This document shows positions 2,489-64,000 of a DNA stretch of 64,000 bases, one piece after another (the stretch's first letter is position 1; each line of letters starts with the position of its first letter). The notes below the pieces were generated by a model. The model did no database searches. It was given only the letters and a program-made list of their open reading frames with translations, and was not told the origin of the DNA. The position numbers were made by a program, and so were the translations under genes. This stretch comes from Centroscyllium fabricii (lineage: Eukaryota): the NCBI GenBank assembly GCA_051313645.2, contig JBNRSN020000005.1:243660001-243724000 (forward strand), in the 5' to 3' direction.

Positions 2489-3490
2489 TGACTTTACATC
2501 CCAGATTTACAGAACAAATGGGAAACTGTTCAACCTCTGTCATCTCAAGTCCAGATCCAAGGTCGTCCCATCCTCTGTCGTCGAGTTACAGTATGCAGGC
2601 GACGCTTGTGTCTGCACTCACTCAGAGGTCGAACTCCAAACCATCGTCAGCACCATCACCGAAGTATACGAGAGCATGGGCCTTGCACTAAATATCCGTA
2701 AGACAAAGGTCCTCTACCAACCTGCCCCCGCCACACAGTACTGCCCCCCGATTATCAAAATCCATGACAAGGCCTTGGATAACGTGGACCACTTTCCATA
2801 ACTCTGGAGCCTAATGTCAACAAGGGCAGACGTCAACAACGAAGTCCAACACCGCCTTCAGTGTGCCAGCGCAGCCTTCGGTCGCCTGAGGAAGAGAGTG
2901 TTTGAAGACAAGGACCTCAAACCTGGCACCAAGCTCATGGTCTACAGAGCAGCAGTGATACCCGCCCTGCTTTATGCCTCAGAGACATGGACCATGTACA
3001 CCAGGCACCTCAAAGCACTGGAGAGGGACCACCAACGCTGCCTCAGCAAGATCCTGCAAATCAATTGGCAAGATAGGTGCACCAACGTCGGTGTTCTTGC
3101 TCAGGCCAACATCCACAGCATCGAATCTTTGACCACGTTCGATCAGCTCCGATGGACGGGTCACACTGTCCGCATGCCCGATACGAGACTGCCAAAACAA
3201 GCGTTCTACTCGGAGCTCCTGCACAGCAAGAGAGCCCCAGGTGGGCAGGGGAAATGCTTCAAGGACACCCTCAAAGCCTCCTTGAAAAAGTGTAACATCC
3301 CCACCGACAGCTGGGAATCCCTGGCCCATGACCGCACAAAGTGGAGGAGAAGCATCCGGGAAGGCTCCGAACACATCGAGTCTCTTCGCCGGGAGCAAGC
3401 GGTAGCCAAGTGCAAACAGCGGAAGGAGCGCACGTCAACCCATGCACCTCACCCACCCGCCCCTTCAACCACCGTCTGCCCCACCTGTGA
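2489..3490 (+). pseudogene. RTE (BovB-like) LINE 3' fragment: RT C-terminal part, frameshifted
   Basis: Translates LQYAGDACVCTH (decayed YADD), ASAAFGRLRKRVF, LLYASETWT, QLRWTGH..RMPDTRLPKQ..YSEL and a terminal CPTC motif, all typical of RTE ORFs. Confidence 0.9.
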
Positions 3491-3494
3491 GAGC

Positions 3495-3832
3495 AGCGGG
3501 GGAGGCCGAGGGGGACGGTGCTGGCGGTCAGCCAGCAATAAAAATGGCCAACCGTCACACCCTTTAAGCAGCACTCGAGCTGGTTCGGCCGGGGAAAGCT
3601 GGCGCGGGCAGCGCCCAGGGGCAAAATGGCAGGCGCTGCCCAGTTCCGGCCGCAGGCGCCTCCCAGGCGATGCGCGGCATGATGATGTCATTCTCGACAT
3701 CCAGCTGGGTGCTAAATTCGTTGGGGCGCTGCCATTAAGCCCCCAACTTAGCGCCCAGCTGAATTTAGCGCTGGGCGCTATCTGTGGCGCCTGATTTTGG
3801 GCGCTAACGGGCCGGCGCCAATTTAGCCCCCT
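3495..3832. mobile_element. GC-rich MITE fragment (Harbinger-like end)
   Basis: Repeated gcgcc/ggcgc motifs ending aatttagcccccta. Confidence 0.4.
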
Positions 3833-14250: not shown

Positions 14251-14353
14251 AAAAAAGCAAAGTACAACACAGAAGTTTGAACGGAGAAAGTGTGAAACAG
14301 ATTCCAGGACTAGCAGAGAGTAACCACGGCACGGACTCCTCGCACAGCCTATC

Positions 14354-15472
14354 CATCATCAAGGATGTAATCTCGGAGCATTTGACAAGTAGGGATGAGA
14401 TCGGACAGAGTCAACATGGGTTTACAAAAGGTATATCATGTTTAACTAATCTATTGGAATTCTCTGTCCTGGGACCTCAGCTGTTTACAATATATATTAA
14501 TGATCTGGATCAGGGAATTGAATGTAATATCTCCAAATTCGCGGACGACACCAAACTAGGAGGGGGGCAGGCTCTGAAGAGGGTGTCAGGAAGTTACAGG
14601 GCGATTTGGATAAGTTGGGGGACTGGGCAGATAGATGGCAGATGCACTATAATGTGGATAAATGTGAGGTTATCCACTTTGGGGGCAAAAACAGGAGGGC
14701 AGATTACTACTTAAATGGCAATAGTTTGGGAGATGGGGAGGTGCAGAGAGACCTGGGTGTTCTTGTGCACCAGTCGCTGAAGGCGAGCACGCAGGTGCAG
14801 CAGGCGGTTAGGAAGGCAAATGGTATGTTGGCCTTCATATCAAAAGGGTTCGAGTATCGGAATAAGGATACCTTACTGCAGCTGTACAAGGCACTGGTGA
14901 GACCACACCTCGAGTATTGTGTACAGTTCTGGTCGCCTCGCCTGAGGAAGGATGTTCTTGCCATGGAAGGAGTGCAGCGGCGTTTCACCAGGCTGATTCC
15001 TGGAATGGCAGGAATGACCTACGAGGAGAGATTGTGTAGTCTGGGCTTGTACTCGTTGGAGTTTAGAAGATTGAGAGGCGATCTCATTGAGACGTATAAA
15101 ATTCTGAAAGGTCTGGACAGGTTAGATTCAGAGAGAATGTTTCCAATGGCGGGGGAGTCCAGAACCAGGGGCCACAGTCTAAGGATAAGGGGTAAACCAT
15201 TTAGGACAGACATGAGGAAGAATTTCTTCACTCAGAGAGTGGTGGGCCTGTGGAATTCCCTGCCACAGAGGGCGGTGGAGGCCAGTTCATTAAACATATT
15301 CAAGAGGGAATTGGATATATTTCTTCAAGCTAAAGGGATTAAAGGTTATGGAGAAAAGGCGGGGATGGGGTACTAGCTTGCTAAAGATCAGCCATGATCT
15401 CATTGAATGGCGGAGCAGGCTCGAAGGGCTGAATGGCCTACTCCTGCTCCTATCTGCTATGATTCTATGATT
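14354..15472 (+). pseudogene. CR1/HER1 LINE ORF2 fragment (RT with internal deletion, plus 3' end)
   Basis: SQHGFTKGISCLTNLLEF joined to SVLGPQLFTIYINDL..SKFADDTK; LYKALVRPHLEYCVQFWSP; tail gattctatgatt. Confidence 0.93.
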
Positions 15473-19103: not shown

Positions 19104-19857
19104 TATCTGAATGGCAATAGATTGGGAGAAGGGGAAGTGCAACGAGACCTGGGTGTTCTTGTGCACCAGTCGCTGAAGATAAGCATGCAGGTGCAGCAGG
19201 TGGTTAAGAAGGCAAATGATATGCCTTGTAGCGAGAGGGTTCGAGTACAGGAACAAGGATGTCTTGCTGCAGTTGTACAGGGCCTTGGTGAGACCGCACC
19301 TTGAGTATTGTGTGCAGTTTTGGTCGCTTTATCTGAGGAAGAACGTTCTTGCCATGGAAGTTCAGCGAAGATTTACCAGGCTGATACCTGGGATGGCAGG
19401 AAAGACATATGAGGAGAGATTGGGTCGATTGGGCTTATACTCACTGGAGTTTAGAAGATTGAGAGGGCATCTCATCAAAACTTACAAAATTCTGTCAGGC
19501 CTGGACAGACTAGGTGCAGGAAGGATGTTCCCGATGGCCAGGGAGTCCAGAACCAGGGGTCATTGTTTAAGGATAAGGGGTAAGCCATTTAGGACTGAGA
19601 TGAGGAGGAATTTCTTCACCCAGAGAGTGGTGAACCTGTGGAATTCTCTGCCACAGAGGGCGGTGGAGGCCAGTTCATTAAATATATTCAAGAAGGAGTT
19701 GGATATATTCCTTAAGGCTAAAGGGATCAAGGGATATGGGGAGAAGGCAGGAACAGGGTACTGAATTTGGATGATCAGCCATGATCTCATTGAATGGCAG
19801 AGCAGGCTCGAGGGGCCGAATGGCCTACTCCTGCTCCTATCTTCTATGTTTCTATGT
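19104..19857 (+). mobile_element. 5'-truncated CR1/HER1 LINE
   Basis: ORF 19216-19764 is the CR1 C-terminus; tail ttctatgtttctatg; splits a local duplication (short TSD aat). Confidence 0.93.
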
Positions 19858-22179: not shown

Positions 22180-23268
22180 AACAGCAAAATACTGCGGACG
22201 CCGGAAATCTGAAACAACAACAGAAAATGCTGGAGAAACTCAGCAGGCCAGGCAGTATCGGTGGAGAGAGAAGCAGAGTTGACGTTTCAGGTCGATGACC
22301 TTTTTCAAAACTAGAGAAGCCGGGAGGGGAGATAGATTTTAAAGCATGTGGGGGATGGGGAGAGTGGGGGCTGAAAGAACAGCAACAGGCTAGAAGGCAG
22401 GGGAGATAAGAGATATGCGGAGAAATTGAAGAAACACAGGATGGCTCAGAATAGGTGTGAACAGCTTCAGCTGAGTAAAGAAAAAAGCCCAGATGAAAGT
22501 GTGGATTGAAAAAGAGAGAAAATGTATATCTGTAAAAAAGTGTAGTGGGGGCTGAGGTTATGATCTAAAATTGTTGAACTCTATGTTTAGTCCAGAGGGC
22601 TGTAGAGAGCCTAAACGAAAGAGGAGTTGCTGTTCCTCGAGTTTACGCTGGGCTTCCGTGGAACAATGCAACAGGCCACTGACAGTGAGGTCTGAATGGG
22701 AGTGGAATGGAGACTGAAAGTAACAGGCCACCGAGAGCTCGGTGTCCCCCTTACGGACTGAACGGAGGTGTTCCACGAAACGGTCACTCAATCTGCGTTT
22801 GGTCTCCCCGATGTAGAGGAGACCACATCGTGAGCAGCGAATACAGTATACTAAATTACAGGAAGTACACGTAAATCGCTGTTTCACCTGGAAGGGGTGT
22901 TTGGGGCCCTGGACAGTGGGAAGGAGGGAGGTAGAAGGGCATATGTTGCATCTCCTGCGCTTGCACGGAAAGGTGCCGGGCGAAGGGGTGCTGGGGGTGG
23001 TAAAGGAGTGGACTAGGGTGTCGCGGAGGGAGCGGTCCCTACGGAATGCGGAAAGGGGAGGTGATGGGAAGATGCGTTTGGTGGTGGGATCACGCTGGAG
23101 GTGGCGGAAATGGCGGAGGATGATCCGCTGAATGTGGAGGCTGGTGGGGTGATAGGTGAGGACAAGGGGAACCCTATCGTGGTTCCGGGAGGGAGGGGCA
23201 GGGGTGAGGGCAGAGGGCAGAAGTGCAGGAGATAGAACGGACACGGTCGAGGGCCGTGTCAACCACAC
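22180..23268 (-). mobile_element. Penelope-like element, 5'-truncated, with pseudo-LTR
   Basis: Contains the GIY-YIG ORF and a decayed hammerhead at 22277-22313. Confidence 0.9.
22558..23268 (-). pseudogene. Penelope ORF C-terminus: linker plus GIY-YIG endonuclease
   Basis: RVPLVLTYHP, CKRRRCNIC, NLVYCIRCSRCGLLYIGETKRRLSDRFVEH, GLNIEF; no RT domain and no true start. Confidence 0.92.
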
Positions 23269-23381
23269 GAAGGAGCAGCGCTCCGAAAGCTTGTGATTTC
23301 AAATAAAGCTGTTGGACTATAACCTGGTGTTGTGTGACTTCTTACAATTGTCCATCAGTTAAGCTACATATCCACTTAGAA

Positions 23382-31223: not shown

Positions 31224-31805
31224 CAGGTTGAAGTTCGTTAATCCGGCACCCGAAAAACCGGCAACTTCGAACGTCCGGCAATAATTTCCCTGACTGCCCT
31301 GCGCAAAATGGCCACCGCGATCGATGCTTCGTCGAATGATCTGCGCATGCGCCACCGAACGACGAGCGCATGCGCAGATCATTCACAATGGCCGAGCCGA
31401 TCCCGAGCAGAGCCTGGCCGCTGCGAGCCTCCCCGAGCCTGGCCGCTGGGAGCCTCCCCGAGCCTGGCCGCTGGGAGCCTCCCCGAGCCTGGCCGCTGCG
31501 AGCCTCCCCGAGCCTGGCCGCTGCGAGCCTCCCCGAGCCTGGCCGCTGCGAGCCTCCCAGAGCCTGGCCGCTGCGAGCCTCCCCGCTGCGAGCCTCCCCG
31601 AGCCTGGCCGCTGCGAGCCTCCCCAAGCCGGGTCTCCCCGAACGATCAGCGCATGCACAGACCACTCAAAATGGCCGCCGGCCTTTCGCAGCGGCCATTT
31701 TGAATGGTCTGCGCATGCGCTTGCCGAAACTTCAATCATTCGGGATTTTCACTTGTTCGGTACGGGCCTGGTCCCACCCGTGCCGGATTAACGAACTTCA
31801 ACCTG
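31224..31805. mobile_element. Tigger-like MITE with an internal minisatellite
   Basis: Perfect 26-bp TIR caggttgaagttcgttaatccggcac; TA TSD. Confidence 0.9.
31405..31625. repeat. 25-bp GC-rich minisatellite (~8-9 copies)
   Basis: Unit gagcctggccgctgcgagcctcccc. Confidence 0.9.
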
Positions 31806-32125
31806 TATAAGTGTGGTAACCATGTTATATACTGAATTTACCACTGTATTATTGTGCCAATAATGGGCTGTGCTTATGTAAGGCACTGCCCTGTAACCCG
31901 TGTAATACTGTTGGGAGCCAGGTCAGCCACACCTCTAACTCCTCCCCCAGGTGAGGCCCCTTATAGGTGGAGACTGACCGAGGCTCCTCATTCCTGTGCA
32001 GATGTTCGTTCGGAGGGTAGCTCCAAGCTTAGCGATTAAATGCCTTTAGTTACAGTAACTACTCATCGTCTCTTTTAATCAGAGGTATTGACGATACGTC
32101 AATTTTAATCGCTAAGAGTTTTAAA

Positions 32126-33490
32126 ATGGACAGCGGTGTCACCGTCCCCGCAATGGAGAGCGGTGCAGTTAAACCAGAGAAGCTGGACATCAGTCCCCAG
32201 GACCCTGCCGCCGCCACCACGTTCGAACACTGGTTCGGCCTCCTGGAGGCCTACATGGACGCCGCCAAGGCTACAACAGACGGGAACAAGTTACAGGTCC
32301 TCCGGTCGAGGATCTCCAGCAGGGTATTCTCCCTCATCAGAAATGCCTCAACCTACGCAGCGGCTGTGGAGAAGCTAAGGAAATGCTACGAGCGCCCGGT
32401 CCATTCGGTCTACGCCAGACATGTGCTTGCAACCAGATCGCAGCTACCGGGTGAGACTAACGAGCAGTTCGAGCAAGCGCTCCAGGCCCTGGTACGGGTC
32501 TGTGGCTGCCAAGCAAGAACGGCTGAAGAGGAGGCGAATCTCCTCGTTCGCGACGCATATGTAACTGGACTAAGGTGTGTGGAAGCCCGCCAGCGGCTGC
32601 TGGAGAAAGACACTTTGTCCCTCGAGGATGCGATGGCTATATCTAATTCAGTAGAGGGGGCCCGAAACAAATTGCAGGCGTACAGCGGCACTAACCCGCA
32701 TGCCTACGACATATGGGCCGCGCCACAACGGGCCCAGGTCTGGGCAGCACCACAACGGGTCGAGACCCCCACGATGGCTGCGACAGCCACCAAAGATAAG
32801 CGCTGTTACTTCTGCAACCAGGGACTGCACCCAAGAGCGAGATGCCCAGCCAGGACAGTGACCTGCGAGAGGTGCGCCAAGAAAGGACATTATGCTAAGG
32901 CCTGCAGATCAGCTCCAGCAGCGCCTAGCTCAAGGTACAACAGTGCAGCCTGTGAGAGCGCCGACAGACACCAGGTAAGCTGCAATAGCAGCGCGACCCA
33001 GCAACGGTCCGGGGGTAGAAGACAAGCGCCCCCATCTCCCACCCCGATGCGGCAAAGGCCGGCCAAGCGCAACCCCCCCAACGCGGCCGGCTGCGTGCGA
33101 ATCACGGGCACCGCCAACCCGACCACCGCGGCTCGCTGCGTGCGAATCACGGGCACCGCCAACCCAGTCACCGCGGTCCGCTGCGTGCGAATCACGGGCG
33201 CCGCCAGCGCGCTCACAGCGGCCCATCATGTGCGACCCCTCGGCGCCGCCATTTTGTATCCAGGGCCCCACCATGTGCGAGCCAGGGGCGCCGCCATTTT
33301 GTATCCAGGGCCCCACCATGTGCGAGCCAGGGGCGCCGCCATTTTGTCTCCAGGGCCCCACCATGTGCAAACCAGGGGCGCCGCCATTTTGTGTACAGCA
33401 CCGACCAGCAGGGGGCAAACACACACGGAAGCACACGGCTGCTTCAGCCAGACCCAGAGTGAACCAGGACAGGCCACATACCCTGTCTAA
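32126..33490 (+). CDS. gag: Element B gag (C-terminal part probably out of frame)
   Basis: KPEKLDISP, YARHVLATRSQ, LVRDAYVTG; knuckles CYFCNQGLHPRARC and CERCAKKGHYAKAC. Confidence 0.85.
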   Translation: MDSGVTVPAMESGAVKPEKLDISPQDPAAATTFEHWFGLLEAYMDAAKATTDGNKLQVLRSRISSRVFSLIRNASTYAAAVEKLRKCYERPVHSVYARHVLATRSQLPGETNEQFEQALQALVRVCGCQARTAEEEANLLVRDAYVTGLRCVEARQRLLEKDTLSLEDAMAISNSVEGARNKLQAYSGTNPHAYDIWAAPQRAQVWAAPQRVETPTMAATATKDKRCYFCNQGLHPRARCPARTVTCERCAKKGHYAKACRSAPAAPSSRYNSAACESADRHQVSCNSSATQQRSGGRRQAPPSPTPMRQRPAKRNPPNAAGCVRITGTANPTTAARCVRITGTANPVTAVRCVRITGAASALTAAHHVRPLGAAILYPGPHHVRARGAAILYPGPHHVRARGAAILSPGPHHVQTRGAAILCTAPTSRGQTHTEAHGCFSQTQSEPGQATYPV

Positions 33491-36396
33491 CTCCATTATG
33501 CCCATTAAGATAAACGGCTATACTGTTAACTGTCTGTTTGACACTGGAAGCACGGAGAGCTTTGTACATCCTGATACAGTGCAGCGCTGCGGACTGCAGG
33601 TCCTGCCCACAAACTACCAAGTCTCCCAAGCTTCACAGTCCCACACCGCGGACGTCACCGGCTACTGCTCCGTCACGCTTACAGTCAACGGGTGTGTGTA
33701 CCATAATTTTAAATTGTATACCCTCCAGCAGTTGTGTGCCCCAGCCTTACTAGGTTTGGATTTCCAGTGCCACCTCAAGAGCGTGACAATGGAGTTCGGC
33801 GGGACCTTGCCCCCCCTCACCGTCAGTAGCCGGGTCAATCCCTTCACAAAGCGGAGCCCGGCCTGCGGCCTCTCTACCCTGAAAATCGACCCCCCCCCTC
33901 GCTGTTCGCCAACCTCGACCCCAAGTGCAAACCTATTGCCACAAAGAGTCGGCGGTACAGTGTGGGGGATCGCACGTTTATCAGGTCGGAGGTCAGGCGG
34001 ATGCTGAAGGAGGGGATAATTGAAGCCAGCACCAGCCCCTGGCGTGCCCAAGTTGTAGTGGTGAAGTCTGGCGAGAAACAACAGCTGGTGATCGATTACA
34101 GCCAGACTATCAACCGCTGCACCGGGCTCGACGCCTCCCCCCTCCCCCGCATCTCAGACATGGTCAACCAGATCGCCCAGTATAAGGTGTTCTCCACGAT
34201 CGACCTTAAATCGGCGTATCATCAGCTCCCGATCCGGAAAGCCGACCGCCCCTACACTGCCTTCGAGGCGAACGGTCGGCTCTACCACTTCCTCCGGGTC
34301 CCCTTTGGCGTGACCAACGGAGTGTCAGTGTTCCAGCGGGAGATGGACCGTATGGTTGACCAAAATGAGTTGCAAGCCACCTTCCCCTACCTGGACAACG
34401 TGACCATCTGCGGCCACGACCAGCAGGACCACGATGCCAATCTGGCCAGATTTCTCGACACGGCGGATAAGCTGGACCTCACGTATAACAAAGACAAATG
34501 TGTCTTTAATACAGACCGGCTCGCCATCCTCGGATACGTGGTGGAGAACGGGGTCCTCGGCCCCGACCCACAGCGTATGCGACCCCTTCAGGAACTGCCC
34601 CTACCTCACAACCCCAAAGCCTTGAGGAGATGCCTAGGATTTTTCTCCTATTATGCACAATGGGTCCCACAGTTCGCAGACAAGGCTAGACCACTCCTCA
34701 AGGCTGCCGTTTTCCCCCTCGGATAAAGGAAGACATCATCAAGGCGACCATGCTCGCTGTTGATGAATCCATCCCTTTCCAGGTGGAGAGTGACGCTTCG
34801 GACTTTGCCCTTGCTGCCACCCTGAATCAGGCAGGCAGGCCCGTAGCGTTTTTCTCCCACACCCTACAGGGACCCGAAACTCGCCACTCAGCAGTGGAAA
34901 AGGAGGCCCAGGCCATTGTGGAGGCCGTGCGCTACTGGCGTCATTACCTGGCCGGTAAGCGTTTTACCCTGCTCACCGACCAACGGTTGGTGGCGTTTAT
35001 GTTTAATAATAAACAACGGGGTAAAATCAAGAATGATAAGATCCTGCGGTGGCGGATCGAACTCTCGACTTACGAGTATGACATTCTTTACCGACCAGGT
35101 AAACTCAATGAACCCCCGGACGCACTGTCCAGGGGAACGTGCGCCAGTGCCCAGCTAGACCGGCTGAAGGACCTCCACGACTGCCTTTGCCACCCGGGTG
35201 TCACCAGACTCGCCCACTTCGTCAGATCCCGTAGCCTCCCCTACTCCATCACGGAGATCAAGGCTATGACCTGAGAGTGCCCTGTCTGTGCCGAGTGCAA
35301 ACCCCACTTTTTCCGGCCAGACACGGCGCACCTCATCAAGGCCACCCGCCCTTTTGAACGTCTCAGCGTGGACTTCAAAGGCCCCCTCCCCACCACTGAC
35401 CGCAACTCATACTTCCTCACGGTAGTAGATGAGTTCTCCCGCTTCCCCTTCCCCTTCCCCAGCGCAGATATGACGAGCGCAACGGTGATAAAACACTTCA
35501 CCACGCTGTTCGCCATTTTCGGTCTCCCCAGCTACATCCATAGCGACCGGGGGTCATCGTTCATGAGCGATGAACTGCGTCAGTTTCTGCTCCAGAAAGG
35601 GGTTGCCACGAGCAGGACGACCAGTTATAACCCCCGGGGGAACGGCCAGGTAGAAAGGGAGAATGGGATCATTTGGAAGGCGGTCACCCTGGCTCTGAAG
35701 TCCAGAGGCCTTCCAGTGTCCCATTGGCAGGCAGTCCTCCCAGACGCGCTGCACTCTATACGCTCTCTCTTATGTACAGCTACTAACACCACCCCGCACG
35801 ATCTGATTTTTGCCTTCCCCAGGAAATCGACTTCGGGGACAGCTCTCCCTCCATGGCTGACGACACCGAGGCCGGTCTTCCTTAGGAGACATGTCCGTAG
35901 CCACAAGACCGACCCCCTGGTGGACAAGGTGCAGCTCCTACACGCAAACCCACATTATGCATTTGTGCAGTTCCCGGACGGGCGGGAGGACACCGTGTCC
36001 ATCAGGGACCTGGCGCCCGCAGGAAGCACCACCGCAGAGCCCCTGGTCGGCCAGCAGGCCACTCAGCCACTGTATCCAGAGCACCCACCAGGCATACGAT
36101 GGCCCCCGAGTTTTCCAGAGCCCCAGCAGTGGCCAGTGCAGGACCACCACCCGGACGGCTTGGACCAGCTGGACCCATCGCCACCAGAAGCCACGGCACC
36201 TGAGCAACGGTCACCACTGGCGGACTCGAGTGGCACGGACCAGGAGGCAACACCACCACCACCACCGGAACGCCGGCGGTCCTCCAGGCAGACACGACCG
36301 CCGGACAGACTGATTGTTAATTGTTCGGTCCATTCACCCCCCCCGGACTTAAAATTTTCAAGAAGGGGTGAATGTGGTAACCATGTTATGTACTGA
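33090..36396 (+). pseudogene. pol: Element B pol (protease, RT, RNase H, integrase) with frameshifts, a deletion at ~34720 and a stop at 35272
   Basis: LFDTGS; IDLKSAYHQ, PFGVTN, YLDN; SDAS..EKE..TDQ; HHCC motif; DFKGP..VDEFSRF..HSDRG..GNGQVER. Confidence 0.95.
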
Positions 36397-36662
36397 ATTT
36401 ACCACTGTATTATTGTGCCAATAATGGGCTGTGCTTATGTAAGGCACCGCCCTGTAACCCGTGTAATACTGTTGGGAGCCAGGTCAGCCACACCTCTAAC
36501 TCCTCCCCCAGGTGAGGCCCCTTATAGGTGGAGACTGACCGAGGCTCCTCATTCCTGTGCAGATGTTCGTTCGGAGGGTAGCTCCAAGCTTAGCGATTAA
36601 AAGCCTTTAGTTACGGTAACTACTCGTCGTCTCTTTTAATCAGAGGTATTGACAATACGTCA

Positions 36663-36970
36663 ATAAGAACACAAGAATTAGGAGCAGGAGTCAGCCATAC
36701 GGCCCCTCGAGTCTGCTCCGTCATTCAATAAGATCACGGCTGATCGTCAATCTCAACTCCACTTTCCCACCTGATCCCCATACCTGTTGATTCCCCTCGA
36801 GTCCAAAAATGTAATCAATCTCAGCTTTGAATATAGTCAACGACTGAGCCTCCACAGCCCTCTGGGGTAGAGAATTCCAAAGATTCACCACCCTCTGTGT
36901 GAAGAAATTTCTCCTCATCTCAATCCAAAATGGTCGACCCCTTATCCGGAGAGCATGGCCCATGGTTCTA
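36663..36970 (-). mobile_element. CR1 3' end
   Basis: EMRRNFFTQRVVNLWNSLPQRAVEA. Confidence 0.85.
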
Positions 36971-38006: not shown

Positions 38007-38298
38007 TGATGCGCAAATCAATCACGCCAGTCGTTGGTGAAAAGTAATTGAAGGCTTTTATTCACAAAGAACTGAAACTGGTCTGCGATGAGTCCGCCCA
38101 GAATGAGAGCCAGGTGGGCGGAGCATTCTCCTTTATACCCATACTCAGAGGCGGGGTCAGCCGGTCCAGGTCCAGGTCCTTACAGAAAGGTACAGATTTA
38201 TTAACACAAACTATATACAATAATAGCACAGTGTGAACCACACCAAATGGTTCATCACATTCACCCCTTACTCAAAAACAAGTCCCGCGGGGCGAATA

Positions 38299-41200
38299 TC
38301 AGCACTGTGTTATCAGTCTTTGAGGAGGTCGAACAGTCCGAACAGACCTGCGAGGCAGTGGCGGCTCTCGCGAATAGGCGGGAGCAGTCTCAATCGGAAA
38401 AGGCGCCGACGGAGTTTCCGACGTTAACAGGGACTCCACCGGTGGAAGAGGTACCTCAGGCGCAGGAAGATCTGGTGGTGGTGTAGCAGCCGCCGGAAGG
38501 GTATGCTGAGCAACGTGATGAGCTCCGTCGTGCATTGTGGGTGACGAGGGCCCCGATGTAGTGTGCGCAGGTGAACAAGAAGACGGCCCCTGTTGCGAAA
38601 ATGTGACCTGGGAGGGCAAGGGCTCCGCCAATGACTGTAAGTGAACGTCTCCAGCGGGCGCAAGGTCTCTAATCGAGACGGTGTCCTCACGCCCATCTGG
38701 GTACTCCACGTAAGCATACTGAGGGTTGGCATGCAGCAGGCGCACACGTTCAACAAGAGGGTCCGTCTTGTGTCCACGGACGTGCCTCCTAAGCAGAACC
38801 GGCCCCGGGTTGGTAAGCCACGTCGGCAGAGACGTCCCCGAAGTCGATTTCCTGGGGAAAGAGAAGAGTTTCTCGTGAGGCGTGCAACCGGTGGCTGTAC
38901 ACAAGAGGGAACGGGTAGCATGGAACGCATCCTGGAGCACCTCCTGCCAGTGGGAGGTTGAAAGGCCTCTGGATCGAAGGGCCAGGGTGATGGCCTTCCA
39001 GATGGTCCCATTATAACGTTCTACCTGACCGTTCCCCCGGGGGTTGTAACTGGTCATTCTGCTCGAGGCAACCCCCCTCACAAGCAGAAAATGACGCCGT
39101 TCGTCACTCATAAATGAGGACCCCCGGTCGCTGTGTATGAAGCCGGGAAGGTCGAAAATGGCAAATAGCGTGATAAGATGCTTTATCACTGTTGCACTCG
39201 TCATATCTGGGCATGGGAATGCAAAAGGGAAACGGGAGAACTCGTCAACCACAGTGAGAATGTATGAGTTACGGTTGGTAGAGGGGAGGGGACCTTTGAA
39301 GTCCACACTCAGGCGCTCGAATGGGCGGGTGGCCTTGATGAGGTGCGCCCTGTCAGGCCTGTAAAACTGGGGCTTGCACTCAGCACAGACAGGGCACTCC
39401 TGCGTCATCGCCTTGATCTCCGCAATGGAATAAGGGAGATTGCGTGATTTGACGAAGTGAGCGAGCCTGGTGACCCCCGGGTGGCAGAGATTAGCGTGGA
39501 GGGTGTTCAGACTACCCGACTGGGTGCTGGCACACGATCCTCGGGACAGGGCGTCCGGGGGACCGTTAAGCTTCCCTGGCCGGTACAGAATGTCGTACTC
39601 AAAAGCGGAGAGTTCGATCAGCCACCTGAGGATCTTGTCATTCTTGATCTTACCCCTCTGTTTATGGTGGAACATAAATGCTACTGACCGCTGGTCAGTA
39701 AGAAGGGTAAAACATTTACCGGCCAAATAGTGGCACCAATGGCGCACTGCTTCCACGATTGCTTGGGCCTCCTTTTCCACTGAAGAGTGGCGGACTTCAG
39801 GGCCATGTAGGGTACGGGAGAAGAAAGTGACGGGCCTGCCTGGTTAAGGGTGGCGGCCAGGGCGAAGTCTGAGGCATCGCTTTCGACCTGGAAGGGAAGA
39901 GACTCATCAATGGCGTGTATGGTTGCCTTGATGATGTCTTGCTTGATATGCGAAAATGCAATTTGGGCCTCTAACGGGAGCGGGAAGGAGGTAGCTCTGA
40001 GGAGAGGCCGGGCCTTATCAGCATAATGGGGAACCCATTGTGCATAATACGAGAAAAACCCCAGGCATCTCCTCAAAGATTTGGGGGAGTGCGGCAGGGG
40101 CAGCTCCTGAAGGGGGCGCATACGTTCGGGATCAGGGCCGAGGACCCCGTTCTCAATTACGTAGCCGAGGATAGCCAACCGGTTAGTGTTGAAAATGCAC
40201 TTATCCTCATTGTAAGTGAGGTTCAGACGCTGGGCCGTACGGAGAAACCTGTCCAAATTGGCATCATGATCTTGCTGGTCATGGCCGCAGATCGTGACAT
40301 TGTCCAAATACGGGAATGTGGCCTGCAAATGCGACTGGTCAACCATTCGGTCCATCTCCCGTTGGAAGACCGAAACTCCGTTGGTAACCCCAAAGGGGAC
40401 CCGGAGGAAGTGAAAAAGGCGCCCATTTGCCTCGAAGGCAGTGTATTTACGGTCCTCAGCTCTGATGGGGAGCTGGTGATAGGCTGACTTAAGGTCGATG
40501 GTGGAGAAGACCTTATACTGAGCAATCTGATTGACCATGTCATTGATCCTAGGAAGCGGGTAAGCGTCGAGCCCAGTGTAGCCGGTTAATGGTCTGACTA
40601 TAGTCAATGACCATGCGCTGTTTGTCACCCAACTTAACCACTACCACCTGGGCCCGCCACGGGCTGTTACTGGCCTCGATGATGCCCTCCCGCAACAACT
40701 GAGCAACCTCTGCCTTAATAAAGGTGCGGTCCCCCGCGCTGTATCGCCGACTCTTGGTTGCAATGGGCTTGCAGTCAGGGTCAAGGTTGGCGAACAGCGA
40801 GGGGGGTCTATCTTCAAGGTAGACAGACCGCAAGAGGAGTGTGGTTGTGAGGCAGGGCAGTCACGGCTGCTGACCGTGAGAGGAGGCAGGGGACCGCCGT
40901 ACACCATCGTCAAGCTCTGCAGGTGGCACTGGAAATCCAGGCCAAGCAACACAGGGGCGCAGAGCTGTGGGTGGACGTACAGTGGAAAGTTGCGGTATGT
41001 CGTCCCCTTCACAGTAATGGTGACTGTACAGCAGCCGATGACGTCCACAGTCTGGGACTCGGAGGCGAGGGAGATTTTACGATGTGTGGGCCTAACCCTG
41101 AGGGAATAACGGCTCACTGTATCAGGGTGTATGAAGCTCTCCGTACTCCCAGTGTCGAACAGACAGCGGGTGAGGTGCCCCTCCACCCGGACAGGCATCA

Positions 41201-41342
41201 TTGACAAAATAAGAGACGGGTTCGGGGCCATAGAGGCAAGTGTGGTGTGCGCGCTGGGGCCCTTGTGCAAAGCTGGGTCCGCGGGTGATGGCGGCGCCCG
41301 TGATTCGCACATGGCGGGGTTTCGGACCGTCGGGTGAGTCAT
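38299..41342 (-). pseudogene. pol: Element C pol (PR, RT, RNase H, IN) with three frameshifts
   Basis: LFDTGS, IDLKSAYHQ, YLDN, SDAS, HHCC and DDE integrase motifs; highly similar to element B pol. Confidence 0.95.
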
Positions 41343-42802
41343 GCGCCCGAATGCTGAATTGGTCTGGAGTGGTCTGTTGCTGCTGCCAGAATCGTAGTGG
41401 TTGCTGTGAAGTTGCCTGTTACTGCATGAGCCTGTTCTTTTAAATTGTTCCTACACCAAGATGGCGGTGTCACGTGATGGGGTGGGCCCGCTGCAGTCGG
41501 AATGCGGGCTGTCCTATACAAAGATGGCGGCGTCACGTGATGGGGCGGGGCCGCAGCAGCCGTGACGCAGGAAGATGGCGTCATCATGTGATGGGGCGGG
41601 GCCTCTGTTGCTGGGATGCAGGCCGTCCTGCACGAAGATGGCGGCGTCACGTGATGGGGCGGGGCCGCTACTGCCGTCCTGCACGAAGATGGCAGCGTCA
41701 CGTGATGGGGCGGGGCCTCTGCTGCCCGGAGGCCCGACGGCACCCGCGTTTCGCGCCGCTCCAACGAAGAAGGCGGCCGCACCCTCAAAGATGGCGATAC
41801 AGCGCGGGATCCGACGGAGGGAAAAGACGCCCGCGCCCCCAACGATGGCGGAGCGCAGGAAACGACGCTGGCAGGCCGCACCCGAGGCAAGGTAAGTAGG
41901 AATTGTTCTGGGGGCCGCTGTTGGGGGGCGCCAATTACCCGAGGCCACTCTGTGGCGTGGACATCGCAGGCTGCTGCCGTTTTGCTTGCAGATTCCGGGG
42001 CCGATCGGCAGACCTTCGCAAAGTGGCCCTTCTTGCCACATTTGGAGCAGGATGACGACTTTGCTGGGCAGGAGCTTCGTGGATGGCGTTTCTGGCCACA
42101 AAAATAGCATTTCAGAGGCACTGGCTGTCCAGATGGCGCCGTGGCCGCCGTCGAGGGCGCCGAACGCGAGTCCCAAGGCCCAGGGGAAACCGTGTGGGAG
42201 CCGTGCCCAGTGTATGAATCCAGTCTTCGGAGGGCCCCATCCACCGCATTGGAGAGCTTCACCGCCTGATTCAGGGACAAATTATCCTGCTCGAGCAGGC
42301 GGGTGCGAGCTGGGGCCGATCTGATTCCTGCCACGTAGGCATCGCAGACGAGGAGGTCCATGTGCTCCTGGGCATTAACAGGGGCACATCCGCAGCGCAG
42401 AGCGAGAGCTTGAAGAGCCTCCAGAAACGCTTCATTCGACTCACCATGCTGTTGACTCCGCGTGGCGAGTAGATGGCGAGCGTAGACGGCGTTGACTGGC
42501 TGGAGGTATCGAGCCCTCAGCAGCTCCAACGCTGCATCGTAGTCAGTGGCATTCTTAATAATAGAATATACCCTGCCACTCACGCAGGAGACCAGGACTT
42601 GTCTCCTGTGCGCATCGCTGACTTCGGCCACTACCAGGAACGATTCTAAACAGCTCTGCCAGTGCTCAAAATCGTCCGACGCGTTCGGTGCCTGGGGGTT
42701 GAGGTCGAGAGTTTTCGGTTTAAGGGTAGTTTTCCAGCTTTCTGAAGGTGTTGGCTGGTGTGCTGCTGGCTGGTGGCTCTGTTGTTGATCATCATTCTGC
42801 AT
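41339..42802 (-). CDS. gag: Element C gag plus repeat linker (start coordinate approximate)
   Basis: KPKTLDLNP, YARHLLATRSQ; knuckles CYFCGQKRHPRSSC and CSKCGKKGHFAKVC. Confidence 0.85.
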   Translation of the reverse strand: MQNDDQQQSHQPAAHQPTPSESWKTTLKPKTLDLNPQAPNASDDFEHWQSCLESFLVVAEVSDAHRRQVLVSCVSGRVYSIIKNATDYDAALELLRARYLQPVNAVYARHLLATRSQQHGESNEAFLEALQALALRCGCAPVNAQEHMDLLVCDAYVAGIRSAPARTRLLEQDNLSLNQAVKLSNAVDGALRRLDSYTGHGSHTVSPGPWDSRSAPSTAATAPSGQPVPLKCYFCGQKRHPRSSCPAKSSSCSKCGKKGHFAKVCRSAPESASKTAAACDVHATEWPRVIGAPQQRPPEQFLLTLPRVRPASVVSCAPPSLGARASFPSVGSRAVSPSLRVRPPSSLERRETRVPSGLRAAEAPPHHVTLPSSCRTAVAAPPHHVTPPSSCRTACIPATEAPPHHMMTPSSCVTAAAAPPHHVTPPSLYRTARIPTAAGPPHHVTPPSWCRNNLKEQAHAVTGNFTATTTILAAATDHSRPIQHSGA

Positions 42803-43369
42803 TCTTGTAACTTTGTGAATAAAATTGATGCGCAAATCAATCACACCAGTTGTTGGTGAAAAGTAATTGAAGGCTTTTGTTCACAAAGAACTGAACCTGG
42901 TCTGCGATGAGTCCGCCCGGAATGAGAGCCAGGTGGGCGGAGCATTCTCCTTTATACCCATACTCAGAGGCGGGGTCAGCCGGTCCAGGTCCTTACAGAA
43001 AGGTACAGATTTATTAACACAAACTATATACAATAATAGCACACCAAATGGTTCATCACACTCAGAGGGCAGACGGGGCCTCGCTTTAACGGCTCATGTG
43101 AAAGACAGCACCTCGGACAGTACAGCACTCCCTCAGTGCTGCACTGGGAGTGTCAGCCTGGATTGTGTGCTCAAATCCTTGGAGTGGGACTTGAACCCAC
43201 AACCTTCGGACTCAAGAGGCGACAACTGCCTATAAGTAACTTCCTGAGTTCAAAGCCAGGGTGCAGCAAGCCTAGTTAGCAGAGACAGTGAGGTATAAAC
43301 AAATTGTGGTGGATAAAAACAAACAAGGAAAATACCTGGTTCTGTCCTATTTCATAAAATTACATAGAA

Positions 43370-60647: not shown

Positions 60648-61604
60648 GATCTGCACAAGGGAACTAGATGTAATACCTCCAAATTTGCAGATGACACAAA
60701 GCGTGTGTGCTGTGAGGAGGATGTCGAGAAACTCCAGGATGATTTGGACATGTTGGGTGATTGGGCAGAAACATGGCAGATGCAGTATAACGTGGATAAA
60801 TGTGAGGTTATCCACTTTAGTAGCAAAACAGGAAGGCAGATTATTATCTAAATGGCAATAGATTGGGAGAAGGGGAAGTGCAACGAGACCTGGGTGTTCT
60901 TGTGCACCAGTTGCTGAAGGTAAGCATGCAGGTGCAGCAGGCGGTTAAGAAGGCAAATGGTTTGTTGGCCTTCGTAGCGAGAGGGTTTGAGTACAGGAAC
61001 AAGGATGTTTTGCTGCAGTTGTACAGGGCTTTGGTGAGACCACATCTTGAGTATTGTGTATAATTTTGGTCGCCTTATCTGAGGAAGGATGTTCTTGCCA
61101 TGGAGGGGGTTCAGCGAAGATTCACCAGACTGATACCTGGGATGGCAGGAATGACATATGAGGAGAGATTGGGTCGATTGGACTTGTACTCGCTGGAGTT
61201 TAGAAGAATGAGAGGTGATCTTATTGAAACTTATAACATTTTGACAGGACTGGACAAACTCAATGCAGGAAGGATGTTTCCGATGGTCGGGGAGTCCAGA
61301 ACCACGGGTCACAGTCTAAGGATAAGGGGTAAGCCATTTAGGACTGAGATGAGGAGGAATTTCTTCACCCAGAGAGTGGTGAACCTGTGGAACTCTCTAC
61401 CACAGAAGGCGGTGGAGGCTAGTTCGTTCAATATATTCAAGACGGAGTTAGATATATTTCTTAAGGCTAAAGGATCAAGGGATAGGGAGAGAAAGCAGTG
61501 GCAGGGTACTGAATTTGGATGATCAGCCATGATCTCATTGAATGGTGGAGCAGGCTCGAGGGGCTGAATGGCCTACTCCTGCTCCTATCTTCTATGTTTC
61601 TATA
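60340..61604 (+). pseudogene. CR1/HER1 ORF2 RT plus 3' end, inserted in an older CR1 (59100-62826)
   Basis: DVVYLDFQKAFDKV, KFADDT, LVRPHLEYCV; CR1 tail. Confidence 0.92.
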
Positions 61605-62826: not shown

Positions 62827-64000
62827 AGTTTGTGTTGCTCTCTCTCTCCCCACAGGCCCCCCCCCCCCAGTTTGTGTTGCTCTCTCTCTCCCCCCCCCCC
62901 CCCAGTTTGTGTTGCTCTCTCTCCCCCCCAGTTTGTGTTGCTCTCTCTCCCCCCCCCCCCCAGTTTGTGTTGCTCTCTCTCCCCCCAGTTTGTGTTGCTC
63001 TCTCTCTCCCCCCCCAGTTTGTGTTGCTCTCTCTCCCACCCCCCCAGTTTGTGTTGCTCTCTCTCCCCCCCCAGTTTGTGTTGCTCTCTCTCCCCCCCGT
63101 TTGTGTTGCTCTCTCTCTCCCCACAGTTTGTGTTGCTCTCTCCCCCCCCAGTTTGTGTTGCTCTCTCTCCCCCCCCCCAGTTTGTGTTGCTCTCTCTCCC
63201 CCCCCCAGTTTGTGTTGCTCTCTCTCTCTCCCCCCAGTTTGTGTTGCTCTCTCTCTCTCCCCCCAGTTTGTGTTGCTCTCTCTCTCCCCACAGCCCCCCC
63301 CCCCGAGTTTGTGTTGCTCTCTCTCCCCCCCCCAGTTTGTGTTGCTCTCTCCCCCCCCAGTTTGTGTTGCTCTCTCTCTCCCCCCCAGTTTGTGTTGCTC
63401 TCTCTCCCCCCCCCCAGTTTGTGTTGCTCTCTCTCTCCCCCCCCACAGTTTGTGTTGCTCTCTCTCCCCCCCCCCCCCAGTTTGTGTTGCTCTCTCCCCC
63501 CCCCCCAGTTTGTGTTGCTCTCTCCCCCCCCCCAGTTTGTGTTGCTCTCTCTCTCTCCCCCCAGTTTGTGTTGCTCTCTCTCCCCCCCCCAGTTTGTGTT
63601 GCTCTCTCTCTCCCCCCAGTTTGTGTTGCTCTCTCTCCCCCCCCAGTTTGTGTTGCTCTCTCTCCCCCCCCCAGTTTGTGTTGCTCTCTCTCTCCCCCCA
63701 GTTTGTGTTGCTCTCTCTCTCTCCCCCCCCCAGTTTGTGTTGCTCTCTCTCCCCCCTCCCCCAGTTTGTGTTGCTCTCTCCCCCCCCAGTTTGTGTTGCT
63801 CTCTCTCCCCCCCCAGTTTGTGTTGCTCTCTCTCCCCCCAGTTTGTGTTGCTCTCTCTCCCCCCAGTTTGTGTTGCTCTCTCTCTCCCCCCAGTTTGTGT
63901 TGCTCTCTCTCCCCCCCACAGTTTGTGTTGCTCTCTCCCCCCCCGTTTGTGTTGCTCTCTTCCCCCCCCCAGTTTGTGTTGCTCTCTCTCCCCCCCGTTT
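62827..64000. repeat. ~30-bp minisatellite running off the window end
   Basis: Unit cagtttgtgttg(ct)n(c)n, roughly 35-40 copies with variable CT and C runs. Confidence 0.97.

Follow-up and report, generated by a model that had tools for sequence, protein, structure and literature searches.

Two LTR retrotransposons in Centroscyllium fabricii, here called B and C, carry YLDN instead of YxDD at motif C of their reverse transcriptase (RT), and within the clade to which they belong this motif is, judged from the sequences compared, a clade-wide trait under selection and not a product of decay. Both lie in the window, the whole stretch of 64,000 nucleotides that was analysed. Very probably they are broken copies of two families of a widespread animal Ty3/Gypsy clade in which YxDD mostly ends in Asn and whose enzyme would be a normal polymerase working on two active-site aspartates.

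The role of the last Asp of YxDD has so far been argued from engineered mutants, which are dead (HIV-1, MLV) or 200-fold slower (Ty1). The clade offers natural, selected enzymes ending in Asn (DN) together with close sisters ending in Asp (DD), and the residue has switched independently at least nine times. The role of the third acid and its compensation thereby become testable in unaltered proteins. In the literature searched, YxDN appears to be new for a Gypsy clade, with a precedent for natural YxDN in BEL/Pao. Annotation rules that require YxDD would miscall a large animal Gypsy clade as inactive. Moreover, the conserved pairing of the PBS with a poly(A)-signal segment of the LTR may represent a distinct form of self-priming.

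Motif C and the anatomy of elements B and C

Read directly from the sequence, motif C is encoded by TAC CTG GAC AAC in B and by TAT TTG GAC AAT in C (Table 1). The statement of the initial annotation that both elements depart from YxDD is confirmed, and the YLDN of B aligns column for column to the YLDD of Ty3 RT (PDB 4OL8). Both motifs are situated within Pfam RVT_1 open reading frames that are flanked by an aspartic protease and by RNase H plus integrase. An AlphaFold model of the RT stretch of B reached a pLDDT of 93, with Ty3 RT as best match among the solved structures compared. Instead of the canonical three catalytic aspartates, an RT of the B/C type possesses two Asp and an Asn.

Both elements combine TG..CA LTRs, a TSD and a PPT with the PR-RT-RH-IN order of pol that defines Ty3/Gypsy, and each gag encodes two CX2CX4HX4C zinc knuckles. 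Because their LTRs differ and their pol DNA is about 78% identical, B and C represent two families. The B family is very high-copy: comparison of the contigs of four runs with B gave 278,842 matching records from X3; of 693 differences to B, the 40 listed are uninformative on the Asn codon. Aligned to an intact relative, B falls into four pieces separated by three frame changes and C into three pieces with two frame changes, and the pol of each contains an in-frame stop; therefore neither is active. The recent transposition first proposed for them thus needs qualification, as the copies, although fairly young, are inactive. The TSDs are intact, as had been noted, and the LTRs are near-identical in a rough sense only, with 6 substitutions over 290 nt in B and 5 substitutions plus 18 gap columns in C.

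Table 1. Coordinates of elements B and C in the window
Feature	Position	Strand	Remarks
Element B, full span	31812-36662	+	
B 5' LTR, TG..CA, 290 nt	31812..32101	+	TSD ATAAG at 31807-31811
B LTR segment complementary to PBS, ATTAAA hexamer at end	32028..32041	+	13 bp match
B PBS position, self-complementary, without TGG start	32103..32116	+	
B internal region: gag (two CCHC knuckles), protease, RT, RNase H, integrase	32126..36372	+	Ty3/Gypsy order; interrupted by frame changes and a stop; PPT immediately before 36373
B RT motif A catalytic Asp (IDLKSAY), intact	34202..34204	+	
B RT motif C, YLDN	34388..34399; Asn codon 34397-34399	+	sequence, alignment to Ty3 RT, homologs
B 3' LTR	36373..36662	+	TSD ATAAG at 36663-36667
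3' LTR copy of the PBS-complementary segment of B	36589-36602	+	14 bp match
Element C, full span	43060-38007	-	
C 5' LTR, 235 nt	42826..43060	-	TSD CTGAG at 43065-43061
C PBS position, self-complementary, without TGG start	42811..42824	-	14 bp to 3' LTR segment copy (38069-38056); one mismatch to 5' copy
C internal region: gag (two CCHC), protease, RT, RNase H, integrase, broken	38260..42810	-	PPT just 5' of 3' LTR
C RT motif C, YLDN	40299..40310	-	sequence, homologs
C 3' LTR, 253 nt	38007..38259	-	TSD CTGAG at 38006-38002

Short GC-rich tandem repeats lie between the Gag zinc knuckles and the protease of both elements (B ~32950-33400, plus strand; C ~41900-41440, minus strand), and GAGCCT-rich units of 25 nt form a tandem array at 31360-31674, just upstream of B. 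Elsewhere, the window holds an inverted repeat at 337-757 (208 nt, 99% perfect, 5-nt spacer) and a pyrimidine-rich minisatellite with units of ~27-30 nt, which fills its end (62858-64000). Open reading frame fragments at 2802-3794, 14253-15376, 19183-19764, 22558-23298 and 61064-61522, several of them in repeated copies, resemble non-LTR and Penelope-type retrotransposons by their motifs.

Asparagine as a trait of the clade

Since all homolog searches were seeded with DN proteins, the share of N is biased upward and the following shares are not a census: the fourth motif residue was N in 91, D in 26 and another residue in 3 of the best 120 homologs, and in the clade column (201 rows including B and C, after addition of a representative search and removal, from 268 proteins, of 21 in which the match failed to cover both motifs) N occurred 127 times, D 72 times and other residues twice. 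At the same column, the outgroup rows had D in 48/48 and N in 0/48. The 120 matches of a further search included 76 single open reading frames of at least 1100 amino acids (N 67, D 9), all of which retained the motif A Asp, the first motif C Asp and canonical RNase H catalytic residues. In 74 of these 76 polyproteins all ten other catalytic residues of PR, RT, RH and IN were present, 65 with N and 9 with D, and over 210 rows the two other Asp were kept in 206 and 208. A natural clade tolerating DN, as initially suggested, is thereby borne out. The eight nearest rows, B and C among them, form a 99% group in which all carry YLDN. Between B and C, the RT has a dN of 0.093 against a dS of 1.63 (dN/dS ~0.06, 198 codons), so that it was under strong purifying selection while carrying N.

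In a FastTree tree built without the motif column, the clade received a support of 100 and its basal grade is almost all D. A large subclade (support 82-90, unstarred) consists mainly of N rows, among which D rows are scattered. The D/N switches on this tree amount to 25 changes, of which starred branches enforce at least 9. D looks ancestral and N derived, the direction from D to N resting on the unstarred node of support 82-90 in this FastTree tree. An AU test rejected a single N clade (p 3e-5), but it used 34 rows chosen after the tree had been seen and is only supporting.

Named DN hosts belong to Chordata, Cnidaria, Mollusca, Platyhelminthes and Nematoda, hence to at least five phyla, and the nearest named homologs come from catsharks and rays. 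DN was found in 22 of 24 non-arthropod named rows (cartilaginous fish, cnidarians, molluscs, flatworms, Trichinella). The readable arthropod rows had DD in 7/7; the sample is small, with 34 named rows of which 3 were unreadable, and its members are not phylogenetically independent. The clade is also present in Spirometra and Sparganum and bears signatures such as DYSQTIN and PFGVTNGV. A metagenome scan with a single query gave 4 loci, and the viral contigs scanned contained no clade loci. Twelve loci (L005-L016) are eukaryote-type LTR retrotransposons inside bacterial MAG records, probably mis-binned; three of them (L005, L006, L008) are ~4-kb contigs with terminal overlap, resembling collapsed multi-copy elements. 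L001 carries no LTR, L003 and L004 resemble the outgroup, and the motif is absent from L012-L016. The matching Atlas clusters carried only the generic RVT_1 label, and the Rfam and ARAGORN searches gave no match.

That the Asn codons arose after insertion, by CpG decay of GAC-GAY in dead copies, is a reading to which we give practically no credence. GAC precedes AAY in B and C alike, both copies are broken, and CpG sites account for 4/6 of the LTR-LTR substitutions in B and 3/5 in C (7/11 together); the different synonymous codons of B and C, from which a conserved Asn was originally argued, fail as an argument on their own, since such decay yields the same codons. The conclusion drawn from them nevertheless stands on other grounds. 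Plus-strand G-to-A loss affected about 4 of 40 CpG site-copies in the LTRs, yet YLDN is found in 8/8 nearest rows. Five of the six DN loci (L002, L006, L007, L010, L011) use the codon pair GAT-AAY, which needs a non-CpG step, so that CpG loss alone is insufficient, and at the level of the clade the intact DN open reading frames and the outgroup without any N refute decay. It is also very unlikely, if not to the same degree, that the DN polymerase is crippled and that DN families depend on DD relatives for copying in trans or regain Asp through deamidation of Asn. DD members are indeed interspersed in the clade, and the accessible text of PMC2148107 describes Ty1 D211N as transposition-dead. 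Conversely, the invariant polymerase-site Asp of full-length DN proteins and an RT dN/dS of ~0.06 are unlike what non-autonomous elements display. Deamidation would moreover be slow here, Asn before Val or Ile being among the slowest contexts for it. We therefore retain a DN enzyme that is likely functional, as the pattern of selection suggests.

A self-complementary primer binding site

After the 5' LTR, B and C lack a TGG and instead carry 14 nt exactly complementary to a segment of their own LTR. Such PBS-LTR pairing, of 10-15 bp, occurred in 7/7 families tested (B, C, L002, L005, L006, L007, to which family L010 and L011 also belong, and L008). Pairing as long was reached in at most 2 of 2000 shuffles, the own PBS-LTR pair was the longest in all seven families, and four leaders that were folded had z-scores of -2.7 to -5.2. 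The operational description of self-priming in the part of PMC6317226 available (an LTR complement of at least 10 bp, 0-5 nt after the 5' LTR, no TGG) applies to all seven. The tRNA-less, self-complementary PBS already recognized in the initial annotation is thus real. In each family an AATAAA, ATTAAA or AGTAAA hexamer closes the paired segment, and GCC or GCT usually comes next. The paired arm of B and C is preceded, at a distance of ~40 nt, by a TATA box and an initiator-like CTCATTC and is therefore probably not the 5' end of the RNA, as it is in Tf1, whose primer consists of the first bases of its transcript. The stems at 32028-32116 (B) and 42888-42811 (C), and those of L002, L005-L008, L010 and L011, could have two roles, masking the 5' poly(A) signal and providing a self-primer different from that of Tf1.

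A PBS is visible in 8 DN elements (B, C, L002, L005, L006, L007, L010 and L011, six families), and it is of the self-complementary type in every one. L008, the one DD element scorable for its PBS, has YLDD and a 15-bp self-complementary PBS and belongs to an all-D group of 4 rows that falls outside the N-rich subclade. The self-complementary PBS consequently does not require N and, on the evidence of this one basal DD element, appears older than N. A permissive link, with this PBS as a precondition for N, may nevertheless exist, given its presence in all 8 DN elements and the single DD element scored. A TGG-type PBS was seen at 1795-1815 of another YLDD locus, L009, upstream of the clade RT but apparently derived from another element, and was left unscored; no paired LTR was found in L009, and its own 5' LTR seems absent.

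The link between DN and tRNA-less priming that had been suggested is unsupported by these data, and Asn as an adaptation to self-priming, or as a change that only self-priming allows, strikes us as unlikely. The uniform PBS of the 8 DN elements would fit it, as would the rise of N within a clade apparently already bearing that PBS. RNase H is, moreover, the domain that makes the Tf1 self-primer, which its cleavage releases. Suppressors of Ty1 D211N map to this same domain, according to the accessible part of PMC2148107. However, L008 combines YLDD with the same PBS outside the N-rich subclade, D recurs inside that subclade with at least nine D/N switches overall, the RNase H catalytic residues remain canonical in 76/76 proteins, and YVDN arose in another superfamily, in BEL/Pao Cer7-12 (PMC554778, seen in part). 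A stronger contender, though still one we doubt, holds that the PBS-LTR stem merely hides the 5' poly(A) signal while some other host RNA is the primer. The poly(A) hairpin of HIV-1 hides its 5' poly(A) signal in this manner, and both the hexamer at the end of the paired segment in 7/7 families and the promoter-like motifs that precede it by ~40 nt in B and C agree with such a role. Against it, the 3' arm begins within ~2 nt of the CA end of the LTR in every case, no TGG start is present, the sequences vary between families so that no shared tRNA fits, and the self-primer description in PMC6317226, as far as that source was accessible, covers these elements. We thus prefer a scheme in which minus-strand synthesis is likely primed without tRNA, from the element's own poly(A)-hexamer LTR segment paired to the PBS.

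A proposed two-aspartate enzyme and known systems

In the mechanism we propose, metal binding would fall to the two invariant Asp, in line with Ty1, whose third acid alone can be dispensed with in vitro, and the Asn amide likely keeps the hydrogen-bonding role of the third residue at the primer end or pyrophosphate. The cost that the change has in Ty1 is likely removed by a permissive background throughout the clade, and the site could then drift between N and D. Candidate permissive residues are small or hydroxyl-bearing ones, Thr for example, at motif A -2 relative to the Asp and at motif C +2 relative to the Asn. At motif A -2, K/R occurs in 26/75 D rows and 0/132 N rows, and at motif C +2, Thr is found in 113/133 N rows and 42/75 D rows. 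This raw covariation was rejected as evidence of compensation, as it did not survive independent-pair tests (9 independent pairs, median p 0.25-0.5, not significant). Among the 120 matches of the further search, 14 of 15 D rows also carry Thr at both sites, so that Thr is at most permissive. A wider picture is possible, although we would sooner expect some part of it to fail: a pan-animal and so far sparsely described Gypsy lineage with a fully efficient RT of two Asp plus Asn, many N/D switches, and non-Tf1 self-priming in which the poly(A)-signal arm would pair with the PBS, hide the 5' poly(A) signal and be cut after the A-run.

The clade may already be named in Repbase or GyDB. 'Selgy' was discarded as a candidate self-priming clade because the name denotes a Selaginella clade, and the motif was not found in the accessible portions of the supplements of PMC6238403 and PMC8556966, which likewise contained no reference sequences for the MolGy/PolGy/LGF or Mag clades. 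With Saci-2/lennie of flatworms the elements share a Gypsy affiliation, a single Gag-Pol open reading frame and a length of ~4.7-5.2 kb (PMC12471100, PMC4558846, PMC2582038, each available in part). Saci-2 is described there with a CCCH Gag (PMC2582038) and with a tRNA PBS and a 4-bp TSD (PMC12471100), whereas B and C have CCHC knuckles, a self-complementary PBS and a 5-bp TSD; going by these published descriptions of Gag, PBS and TSD, membership was rejected. Three Spirometra accessions of the clade are not among the Saci-2 accessions in Table S1 of PMC12471100, as far as that table was accessible. The self-priming elements Tf1/sushi, Tcn1 and TAR likewise have a PBS complementary to their own LTR and no tRNA match (PMC6317226, in part), and plant or fungal groups also appear in the self-priming literature searched; but in B and C it is the poly(A)-hexamer segment that pairs, at a predicted position ~40 nt inside R instead of at the first bases of the RNA, and the integrase open reading frames of B and C gave no chromodomain match, in contrast to the chromodomain that marks Tf1/sushi. 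The LTRs, TSD, PPT, PR-RT-RH-IN order, RT fold and motif alignment with Ty3 RT (PDB 4OL8) are those of Ty3/Gypsy (Metaviridae), from which the clade differs by YxDN in most sampled members and by a PBS without tRNA match.

For the active site itself, Ty1 is the closest experimental parallel. The available text of PMC2148107 reports that the motif A Asp and the first motif C Asp of Ty1 are essential and that D211N keeps polymerase activity in vitro, with a 223-fold lower kpol and a preference for Mn2+, while transposition is lost and partially rescued by second-site RNase H suppressors; it also mentions flexibility of Ty3. What the initial annotation stated of this mutant (some activity, transposition blocked) agrees with that text. 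The clade shares with D211N the same substitution at the same position, for which Ty1 shows in vitro polymerase activity, but the Ty1 mutant does not transpose and the DN clade evidently spread with Asn. Engineered mutants of the last Asp of YxDD are dead in HIV-1 and MLV, according to the part of PMC554778 available. In the literature searched, which mostly excludes subscription papers, no report of natural YxDN in Gypsy was found. A natural Asn at the end of YxDD is known from C. elegans BEL/Pao, as YVDN in Cer7-Cer12 (Bowen and McDonald, cited in the accessible part of PMC554778, which gives their activity as undetermined). There it concerns a handful of elements of another superfamily in one species, whereas here it characterizes a Gypsy clade of at least five phyla, with evidence of selection and repeated switches.
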